In this document: one piece after another, positions 6,754 to 7,785 of the stretch
How the letters are laid out: each line of letters begins with the position of its first letter
How positions within the stretch are numbered: the first letter of the stretch is position 1
Assembly: GCA_965204535.1 (NCBI GenBank)
Contig: CBDBEV010000001.1
Location: 768,001-832,000 of the forward strand
Length of the DNA stretch: 64,000 bases
From: a bacterium
Lineage (GTDB): Bacteria; UBA8248
Reading direction: 5' to 3'
Notes under the pieces: model-generated
Database searches by the model: none
What the model was told of the DNA's origin: nothing
Seen by the model: only the letters and a program-made list of their open reading frames with translations
Made by a program: the position numbers and the translations under genes

Positions 6754-7785
6754 CTAAAGGGGTTTGCGGGCCAGGAAGCAGTACAGCGGCGTGAAGATGC
6801 CCGATTTGCCGCCCGCGACATAGGCGTCCGCGGTCCGGTCCAGGAGCCGAACGACTTCCGCGGAACCCTTCGGAAACAGCCGGACCACCTCGGCCAGCTT
6901 CGAGCCCGCGAGGACCGCCCTGCGGCCGTGCGGAAGCCTGCGCAGGGCGTTGCCCAGCGTCCCGTGCCGACTCTCCATGGGTTGATACCATGGTGTGGAC
7001 GGCCCCTCCCGGACCTCCCGGTCCATCCCTTCGACGACCTGGAATCCCGCCGCTTCGAGCGCCTGGTTCACTTCCCCGAACGTCGCGATCTCCTTGAGCG
7101 CGATGCCGCGCATGAGTTCCCGCTTGATGGCCCGGTGCCGGCCGTCGTTCGGGTCGAACTTCTCCGTCAGGCACATCTCCTGCCCCCAGAACAGGGCGCC
7201 GGGTTTCAGCACGCGGAATATCTCCGCGAACGCGCGTTGCTTGTCCGGCGCGTGGCACGTCGACTCGATGGCGTAGCCCCGGTCGAACGCTTCGTCATCG
7301 ATGGCGCTCATGTCCATGAAGCTGCACGCCTCGTAGTCGATCATGTGGTCGAGCCCCGCCTCGGCGTTCAACCTCTTCGCCCTCTCCAGCTGGATTTTGT
7401 TGATGTTGATCCCGACGACCCGGACGCCGGCCTCACGGACGACGCGGCGCATCGGGCCGCCGATGCCGCAGCCGACGTCGATCACCGTCATGCCCCTCTG
7501 CAACTCCAGTTGGTCGATCATCAGCCGCTGATGCCGGACTTTCGAGTCCTCCAGACTCTCGTTCGGCGAGAGGGGCGCGAAGTGCAGGGATTCGCCCCAA
7601 CCCCACACCATGAAACCGCTGCAAAGGTCGTAGTAGGCCTTCACCGTTTCGGTGTGGTCGTACCCGCTCGCGCCGTCGGACTCCGCCGCCCGGTCGATCC
7701 AGCCCTCGAAGTCTTGCACACGGCGGGTGACGTTCCCCTCTTGATAGGCATCCTTGAGTTCTTTCGACAGTTTGCCTATTTCCAT
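6754..7785 (-). CDS. Sterol C-24 methyltransferase (SMT/Erg6-like) homologue
   Basis: YYDL..WGWGESLHFAP (region I), IDVGCGIGGP (SAM site), YAIESTCHAP (region III), IFRVLKPG, and the Sterol_MT_C tail GGKSGIFTPLYCFLARKP. Confidence 0.88.
   Translation of the reverse strand: MEIGKLSKELKDAYQEGNVTRRVQDFEGWIDRAAESDGASGYDHTETVKAYYDLCSGFMVWGWGESLHFAPLSPNESLEDSKVRHQRLMIDQLELQRGMTVIDVGCGIGGPMRRVVREAGVRVVGININKIQLERAKRLNAEAGLDHMIDYEACSFMDMSAIDDEAFDRGYAIESTCHAPDKQRAFAEIFRVLKPGALFWGQEMCLTEKFDPNDGRHRAIKRELMRGIALKEIATFGEVNQALEAAGFQVVEGMDREVREGPSTPWYQPMESRHGTLGNALRRLPHGRRAVLAGSKLAEVVRLFPKGSAEVVRLLDRTADAYVAGGKSGIFTPLYCFLARKPL

Follow-up and report, generated by a model that had tools for sequence, protein, structure and literature searches.

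P0002 is encoded by an intact gene in the window analyzed here (the whole stretch of 64,000 nucleotides of bacterial DNA). By sequence comparison it belongs to a conserved branch of the sterol methyltransferase (SMT) family that is shared horizontally among sponge-associated bacteria. The catalytic and SAM-binding residues are kept and four aromatic residues of the putative pocket are replaced in a fixed way, from which we infer that the enzyme is active and that its target has shifted. Our preferred reading, to which we give a probability of roughly 0.45, is that P0002 methylates a sterol side-chain alkene other than the usual Δ24 or Δ24(28) bond. This supports the initial annotation of the gene, which had proposed an altered substrate range or a different alkene. 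Within that reading, the terminal Δ25 bond, with methylation at C-26, is a tentative lead.

P0002 keeps the SMT landmarks and departs from them in regions I and IV

The gene and the sites within it that matter for the argument are as follows.

6754..7785, minus strand: divergent SMT-family methyltransferase P0002, 343 aa, open reading frame from ATG to TAG
7797..7802, minus strand: Shine-Dalgarno-like AAAGGA, read from the sequence, 11 nt before the ATG of P0002
7579..7614, minus strand: region I codons of P0002, FMVWGWGESLHF, residues 58-69, corresponding to yeast 80-91
7174..7185, minus strand: region IV codons of P0002, GQEM, residues 201-204, corresponding to yeast 222-225 and preceded by W200

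The initial annotation had reported all SMT regions and a Sterol_MT_C tail, and Pfam bears this out, with the PF08241 methyltransferase domain at 64 bits and Sterol_MT_C (PF08498) at 60.7 bits against a cut-off of 21.7. P0002 is 34% identical to Cladosporium Erg6 (E 3e-65), through which we transferred the yeast numbering; the landmarks that were checked give an offset of 8. The Region II pattern of the SAM site, DXGXGXXGP, is present as D103, G105, G107, G110, and P111, and so are H90 (H68 in P0002) and E195 (E174). The AlphaFold model, built on a 116-sequence alignment, has a class I methyltransferase fold with a pLDDT of 93.9. Searching with P0002 by sequence or by fold found no solved SMT structure, and the nearest solved relatives were MitM, RebM, TleD, and AtmM.

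When scored with a profile of 101 non-clade SMT-like proteins, P0002 reached 387 bits, compared with 422-483 bits for conventional SMTs, some of which have close kin inside the profile; the highest score among the remaining ORFs in the genome was 76 bits. An outgroup tree nested P0002 among bacterial SMTs, with weak support (SH-aLRT 87) and with five long outgroup branches, one of them misplaced. Profile and tree thus place P0002 inside the SMT family and not outside the SMT clade, an outcome that the initial annotation had allowed for.

Region I retains G84, W85, G86, H90, and F91 and is altered at 81, 82, and 89, where P0002 has Met, Val, and Leu; among the 101 non-clade SMT-like representatives, these positions hold Tyr in 86, Glu in 81, and Phe in 90. 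The departures that the initial annotation saw in region I are therefore real at 81, 82, and 89, but Trp83 is ordinary, being present in 16 of the 101. Its reading of region IV as GQEM instead of YEW was confirmed at residues 201-204: Gln stands at yeast position 223 (Tyr in 69/101) and Met at 225 (Trp in 85/101), both unusual against the representatives. Two departures go beyond that annotation, a clade-fixed Trp at query position 200, where 79 of the 101 sequences outside the clade have Ala, Val, or Gly, and Ile at yeast position 249 (Ile228). A 2025 preprint (10.64898/2025.12.19.695621) gives, in the portions cited here, 25 residues common to all active SMTs, of which P0002 keeps 23, the exceptions being T78 (Ser) and F89 (Leu). 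The same portions place Regions I and IV and position 249 in the neighborhood of the sterol side chain, and our argument about the pocket of P0002 is made by alignment only. We did not retain Met at yeast 246 among the clade markers, because L039 and L136 carry it in their active conventional SMTs as well.

The altered signature is conserved across the clade

The closest proteins to P0002, taken as the best 120 of 2,392 matches, are 77-91% identical to it. In these 121 sequences, P0002 included, Met81 and Leu89 are present without exception and GQ[E/D]M is found in 118. For a broader view, 160 fetched loci and the window were reduced to 142 distinct intact coding sequences by dropping 19 partial, broken, or duplicate rows. 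M59, L67, W200, M204, D103, and E174 are invariant in all 142; Q202 is found in 141 and H68 (H90) in 140. Given in yeast numbering, the invariant residues include D125, E195, and W286. At position 249, 139 sequences have Ile and 3 have Val, and Phe occupies yeast position 83 in 39. Since both motifs were part of the patterns used to find these loci, their conservation in the 142-sequence set is partly built in, and the best-match set is the less biased check. Nei-Gojobori dN/dS between P0002 and the other 141 sequences has a median of 0.24 and a maximum of 0.37; with the reading frame also intact, P0002 shows neither lesions nor relaxed selection.

In a quick tree of 75 rows rooted at the midpoint, the clade grouped with three deeper relatives, and a long stem leads to this group (SH-aLRT 100). 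Both this tree and the outgroup tree are quick trees without bootstrap, and their support values are SH-aLRT. The deeper relatives (P0123, P0125, and P0127; 42-58% identity) share L89, W200, Q223, and I249, and the rebuilding of the pocket is therefore older than the main clade. A search for fused forms among proteins of 602-2000 aa returned nine matches at 30-44% identity and no clade member, which is weak evidence. One protein, P0020, joins a KshA_C fragment to an SMT and looks like a shortened Rieske oxygenase run into the SMT.

The gene sits in a recurrent cassette of oxygenase and transport genes

Next to the SMT gene, the window carries the following genes.

7877..8911 (ORF call to 8983), minus strand: Rieske + KshA_C oxygenase, directly upstream of the SMT gene on the same strand
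9047..9976, minus strand: outer-membrane beta-barrel protein
10493..12937, plus strand: MMPL/RND transporter with a sterol-sensing-domain match
12943..13041, plus strand: 3' remnant of a conventional-type SMT gene, directly after the MMPL stop
13404..14144, plus strand: TPR protein
14622..16670, plus strand: GPP34-cytochrome P450 fusion
16697..17698, plus strand: fatty-acid-hydroxylase/sterol-desaturase family gene, local only (found at 1 of 160 other loci)
18013..19575, minus strand: conserved gene without a Pfam match, true start probably near 19272
19269..20087, minus strand: LolA-like periplasmic carrier
20325..21794, minus strand: flavoprotein related to LkcE and, weakly, to PDB 2b9w; a frequent cassette member

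Neighbors were counted at the 90 loci that have 8 kb or more of sequence on each side, and these loci are not independent of one another. A GPP34-P450 lies within reach of the clade SMT at 74 of them, an RND-type pump at 69, a Rieske oxygenase at 67, and a flavoprotein at 32, and the window carries all four. Another SMT is near the clade SMT at 11 of the 90 loci and a cyclase (within 10 kb) at 2.

The cluster and mononuclear-iron ligands of the Rieske oxygenase are invariant in 79 copies, and KshA is its nearest relative among PDB structures. In the Atlas, the names given to P450 and Rieske matches were generic. This KshA-like enzyme and the transporter with its sterol-sensing match are steroid-type neighbors and favor a sterol reading. 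In the GPP34-P450, the heme Cys is invariant and the acid-alcohol pair of the I-helix is replaced, with Tyr in 100 of 101 copies; such an atypical helix may point to desaturation or rearrangement instead of ordinary hydroxylation. The LkcE-like flavoprotein is possibly an isomerase or a reductase acting on the same lipid, and PDB 2b9w we take to be a fatty-acid isomerase. From its position beside the LolA-like gene, the product of 18013..19575 is probably an outer-membrane pore.

The SMT remnant is 92% identical at the DNA level, over 66-137 nt, to the 3' end of a paralogue in L011, L012, L013, and L017, and the slot after the MMPL gene holds zero, one, or two whole copies of the conventional-type SMT gene in same-genus relatives.

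Several further features of this region and genus were seen. The hydroxylase/desaturase gene (16697..17698) is inserted after the P450 gene and was not seen there in the closest relative (L020, L028). Beside the cassette lie an ankyrin-like repeat protein with a signal-like start (21811-22791, minus strand) and a lipoprotein and outer-membrane protein pair (24561-28159, plus strand), all labeled by eye. Short palindromic intergenic repeats that recur in relatives flank the cassette genes (6400-6590, about 4374-4658, 13063-13400, and 14137-14556). Elsewhere in the genome are four or five more MMPL paralogues of 58-64% identity (C1 597556-599679; C2 1587638-1589758 and 2530240-2536242). Same-genus genomes hold at least four other SMT subtypes (L012 5669-7772, L016 8434-15144, L017 9702-10733, L018 6680-7696, and L022 9016-10056). 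One of these subtypes has LYEIAWGRSHHM, Gly where E195 would stand, and the Region IV motif ADEC; another has Cys for the Region III His.

The clade is spread among sponge- and coral-associated bacteria that mostly lack an oxidosqualene cyclase match

Genome matches to the clade (the best 80 of at least 545) carry labels of about 11 phyla at 74-98% identity, and horizontal spread is suggested because the tree mixes phyla over short branches. Where clade records carry a habitat label, it is sponge or coral. Of 22 other genomes of the genus, 9 contain a full-length orthologue (87-98%) and one more a fragment; in 18 genomes that are more distant, no match reached SMT level. The metagenome collection gave 93 matching stretches. 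The 80 listed fall under ten assembly prefixes, and the tables of Brown 2023 link four of these prefixes to A. aerophoba, P. ficiformis, and S. foetidus. Contig JGIcombinedJ30088_10000835 is absent among these 80 of 93 loci. At least a fifth of the gene's words was found in 15 sequencing runs; eight, from three studies, are labeled sponge metagenome and the rest are coded, and there is no RNA run among the runs listed as carrying the gene.

We picked 50 carrier genomes from the 80 for their long contigs and searched them for cyclases. Oxidosqualene cyclase matches at 74-100% were found in 4, and 8 had only cyclase matches at 30-37%, which are probably hopene-cyclase-like; 38 had no triterpene cyclase match, so that 46 of the 50 are without an oxidosqualene cyclase match. 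A second SMT is missing from 36 of the 50. Because of these two counts, the link between the clade and sterols comes from homology and from a minority of clusters. The genome studied here (95.7% complete, 2 contigs) gave no match to a cyclase, ERG4/24, SdmA, or SdmB. Sterol synthesis is patchy within the genus: a squalene monooxygenase-oxidosqualene cyclase (SMO-OSC) fusion of about 1,200 aa occurs in L108, L109, L135, and L136 and was not found in this genome.

Two members of the clade match SMTs that have been assayed

Gene order ties two loci of the clade to published clusters. At L039 the order ERG24, SdmA, SdmB, SMT, flavoprotein, OMP, Rieske, SMT fits genes 277 down to 270 of "Nitrospira sp., coral reef," and we matched "Nitrospira sp., coral reef 2 of 2" (IMG 2682229270, PMC10070321) to the L039 clade SMT, which is 82% identical to P0002. 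At L135/L136 the order SdmB, SdmA, ERG24, P450, SMO-OSC, SMT, Rieske fragment, SMT fits the numbering of genes 16 to 9 in "A. aerophoba 10000835," and "Aplysina aerophoba JGIcombinedJ30088_10000835 2 of 2" (PMC10070321) was matched to the second SMT there, 83% identical to P0002. The first, conventional SMT of L135/L136 has Gly225 and FFEF, as expected of the propylating Ap_sym_SMT, for which a published G225D mutant gives Gly at 225 in the parent enzyme.

Both "2 of 2" SMTs share M81, L89, W200, Q223, M225, and I249 with P0002, as well as S78, and both have a Rieske gene or fragment upstream and a GPP34-P450 downstream. Unlike P0002, in whose genome neither was found, they lie next to a complete sterol pathway and a conventional SMT that is active. 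The Nitrospira enzyme of L039 has a private D189N change, which the L136 copy is without. From a statement in the published text together with the residue rule of the preprint, we deduce that these two homologues are inactive on desmosterol and 24-methylenecholesterol, with the caveat that lysate assays can fail for expression reasons. A figure 3 legend marks inactive SMTs within such sterol clusters. In its cited portions, PMC10070321 treats the "2 of 2" genes as single SMT homologues and describes no clade or cassette, and no Δ25 substrate appears among those offered in the published assays. A motif search for the tested SMT sequences gave 0 matches in the portions of the Brown 2023 supplements that were covered.

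A shifted side-chain alkene would account for the conserved and the altered residues

We hypothesize that an SMT-type carbocation mechanism would persist in P0002, as the retained H90, E195, and SAM motif suggest, and that the reacting alkene would be displaced by the loss of aromatic side chains (Y81M, F89L, Y223Q, and W225M) together with the new W200 and I249. In this scheme the host or neighbors would supply the sterol, its production as a substrate or its finishing would fall to the P450, Rieske oxygenase, and flavoprotein, and transport would fall to the RND pump.

The shift is unlikely to be toward extra methylation at C-28. Gly249 is necessary for propylation, and the G249I change in Chl_SMT left no C29 or C30 product (10.64898/2025.12.19.695621, portions cited), whereas the clade has Ile or Val at this position. 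Nor does P0002 carry the other mark of propylating SMTs, Phe at 81 and/or 83, for it has Met59 and Trp61 at these positions. Ile249, Met81, and the two homologues deduced to be inactive on 24-methylenecholesterol thus speak against the second or third methylation that the initial annotation had listed.

More specifically, the clade could be the missing sterol C-26 methyltransferase, by which symbionts of about 11 phyla, mostly not sterol makers themselves, extend Δ25 sterols of the codisterol and clerosterol types from the host or neighbors; we advance this tentatively, well short of an even chance. The products would be aplysterol and 26-methylstigmastane skeletons, finished by the P450, Rieske oxygenase, and flavoprotein and then exported. 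Brown 2023 (PMC10070321) describes the C-26 enzyme as undiscovered and names (epi)codisterol as the substrate of hypothetical 26-SMTs; in the portions cited, sponge SMTs and the Nitrospira "1 of 2" partner SMT produce (epi)codisterol, and Ap_sym_SMT gives trace epiclerosterol. The major sterols of A. aerophoba and P. ficiformis are reported to be aplysterol and petrosterol, both 26-methylated, and the clade is found on contigs with the assembly prefixes of these two sponges. We found no sequence for a C-26 enzyme in the open-access literature as far as it was covered, where only Brown 2023 and its preprint discuss it, as undiscovered. Against this lead, the clade is as common under the S. foetidus (Sarcotragus) prefix as under that of P. 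ficiformis (15 and 13 of the 80 of 93 loci listed), and no report of 26-methyl sterols in Sarcotragus/Irciniidae was found. A sterol paper on Dictyoceratida never mentions them in its cited portions, which is weak evidence as its table concerns the nucleus. The tightest partners of the clade are oxygenases, which suits the alternatives below.

It is rather doubtful that P0002 is a C-24 SMT that needs another nucleus (Δ5,7, Δ7, 4-methyl, or the lanosterol/cycloartenol type) or a partner, or that the assays failed technically. Such an enzyme would fit the 23 of 25 "functional" residues kept, and the preprint states in its cited portions that inactive SMTs may need other substrates and that four inactive SMTs keep all the conserved residues. 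The adjacent Rieske oxygenase resembles clusters named cholesterol 7-desaturase, which is a lead only, and Δ5,7 sterols are reported to dominate Dictyoceratida. However, the fixed changes fall in Regions I and IV and at 249, beside the side chain according to the preprint, and conventional SMTs are found together with clade members within single clusters, where a second C-24 enzyme would be redundant.

More doubtful still is methylation of an oxidized steroid, a product of the cassette P450 or Rieske oxygenase, on a ring carbon or oxygen instead of the side-chain alkene. Linkage to the GPP34-P450 and the Rieske gene, far tighter than to other SMTs or a cyclase, is what one would expect from it; MitM, RebM, TleD, and AtmM include enzymes titled O-methyltransferase, and the ENLHF motif of MitM and RebM resembles ESLHF in the clade. 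Yet the scores of these relatives do not exceed 85 bits, their alignments are confined to the N-terminal and central part, and P0002 keeps the Sterol_MT_C tail and E195.

We hold it no more probable that the cassette has moved to a non-steroid lipid, with P0002 methylating or cyclopropanating a fatty-acyl or terpenoid alkene. The 38 of 50 carrier genomes without a triterpene cyclase match, the relationship of the flavoprotein to LkcE and 2b9w, and a Pfam CMAS match of 65 bits to P0002 are in line with this, but the SMT profile score of 387 bits, the steroid-type Rieske oxygenase, and the complete sterol clusters lying directly beside the gene in L035, L039, L047, L135, and L136 argue against it.

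Finally, the "degenerate enzyme" of the initial annotation, a non-catalytic SMT copy, is very improbable: two homologues are deduced to be inactive on standard substrates and a few frameshifted copies exist (P0131, P0246, L179, and L185), but the signature is fixed across the clade with a dN/dS of about 0.24, D125, E195, and W286 stand in 142/142 sequences and H90 in 140/142, and this genome lost its conventional SMT and kept P0002.

Significance

Two steranes serve as evidence for Neoproterozoic sponges, and 26-methylstigmastane is one of them. In its cited portions, a paper from 2025 still does not decide whether sponge or symbiont is the author of these alkylations. Under our preferred reading of a shifted alkene, the clade offers a concrete candidate for the C-26 enzyme, with clones of two members already made, and if the C-26 reading is true, the 26-methyl carbon of this "sponge biomarker" would be bacterial. 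Even if it is wrong, a large fraction of the sponge-symbiont genes annotated "SMT1/ERG6" may encode something other than a C-24 enzyme, as 36 of the 50 carrier genomes have only the clade SMT.

Comparison with known systems

The P0002 clade is a genuine variant within a known family, and it is conserved. With the 24-C-SMTs (Erg6, SMT1/SMT2, Ap_sym_SMT, and Chl_SMT), P0002 shares the domain architecture, the SAM motif, H90, and E195 at 33-45% identity. It differs from them by T78S, D79G, Y81M, E82V, F89L, Y223Q, and W225M, by the new W200 and Ile249, and by its membership in a long-stem clade, in which standard C-24 activity is deduced to be absent.

The ERG24-CYP51-LSS clusters of Ircinia symbionts (PMC9531527) resemble the present system in habitat, overlapping phyla, and horizontal spread, and SMT1/ERG6 annotations are enriched there; SMT subtypes are not separated in the cited portions of that study. 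The clade lies mostly outside clusters of this type, having a cyclase within 10 kb at 2 of 90 loci. Other sources cited, in part, are 10.1101/2022.05.16.491679, PMC12541326, PMC6278499, and PMC3039464.

The P450 fusion beside P0002 has the architecture of GPP34_L (GPP34 + cytochrome P450), which is reported to be exclusive to sponge symbionts (PMC11706023). A role in phagocytosis was proposed for GPP34_L, in a main text that, as far as cited, does not contain "sterol," "methyltransferase," or "SMT"; the cassette described here would tie this symbiont-specific GPP34-P450 to lipid chemistry.
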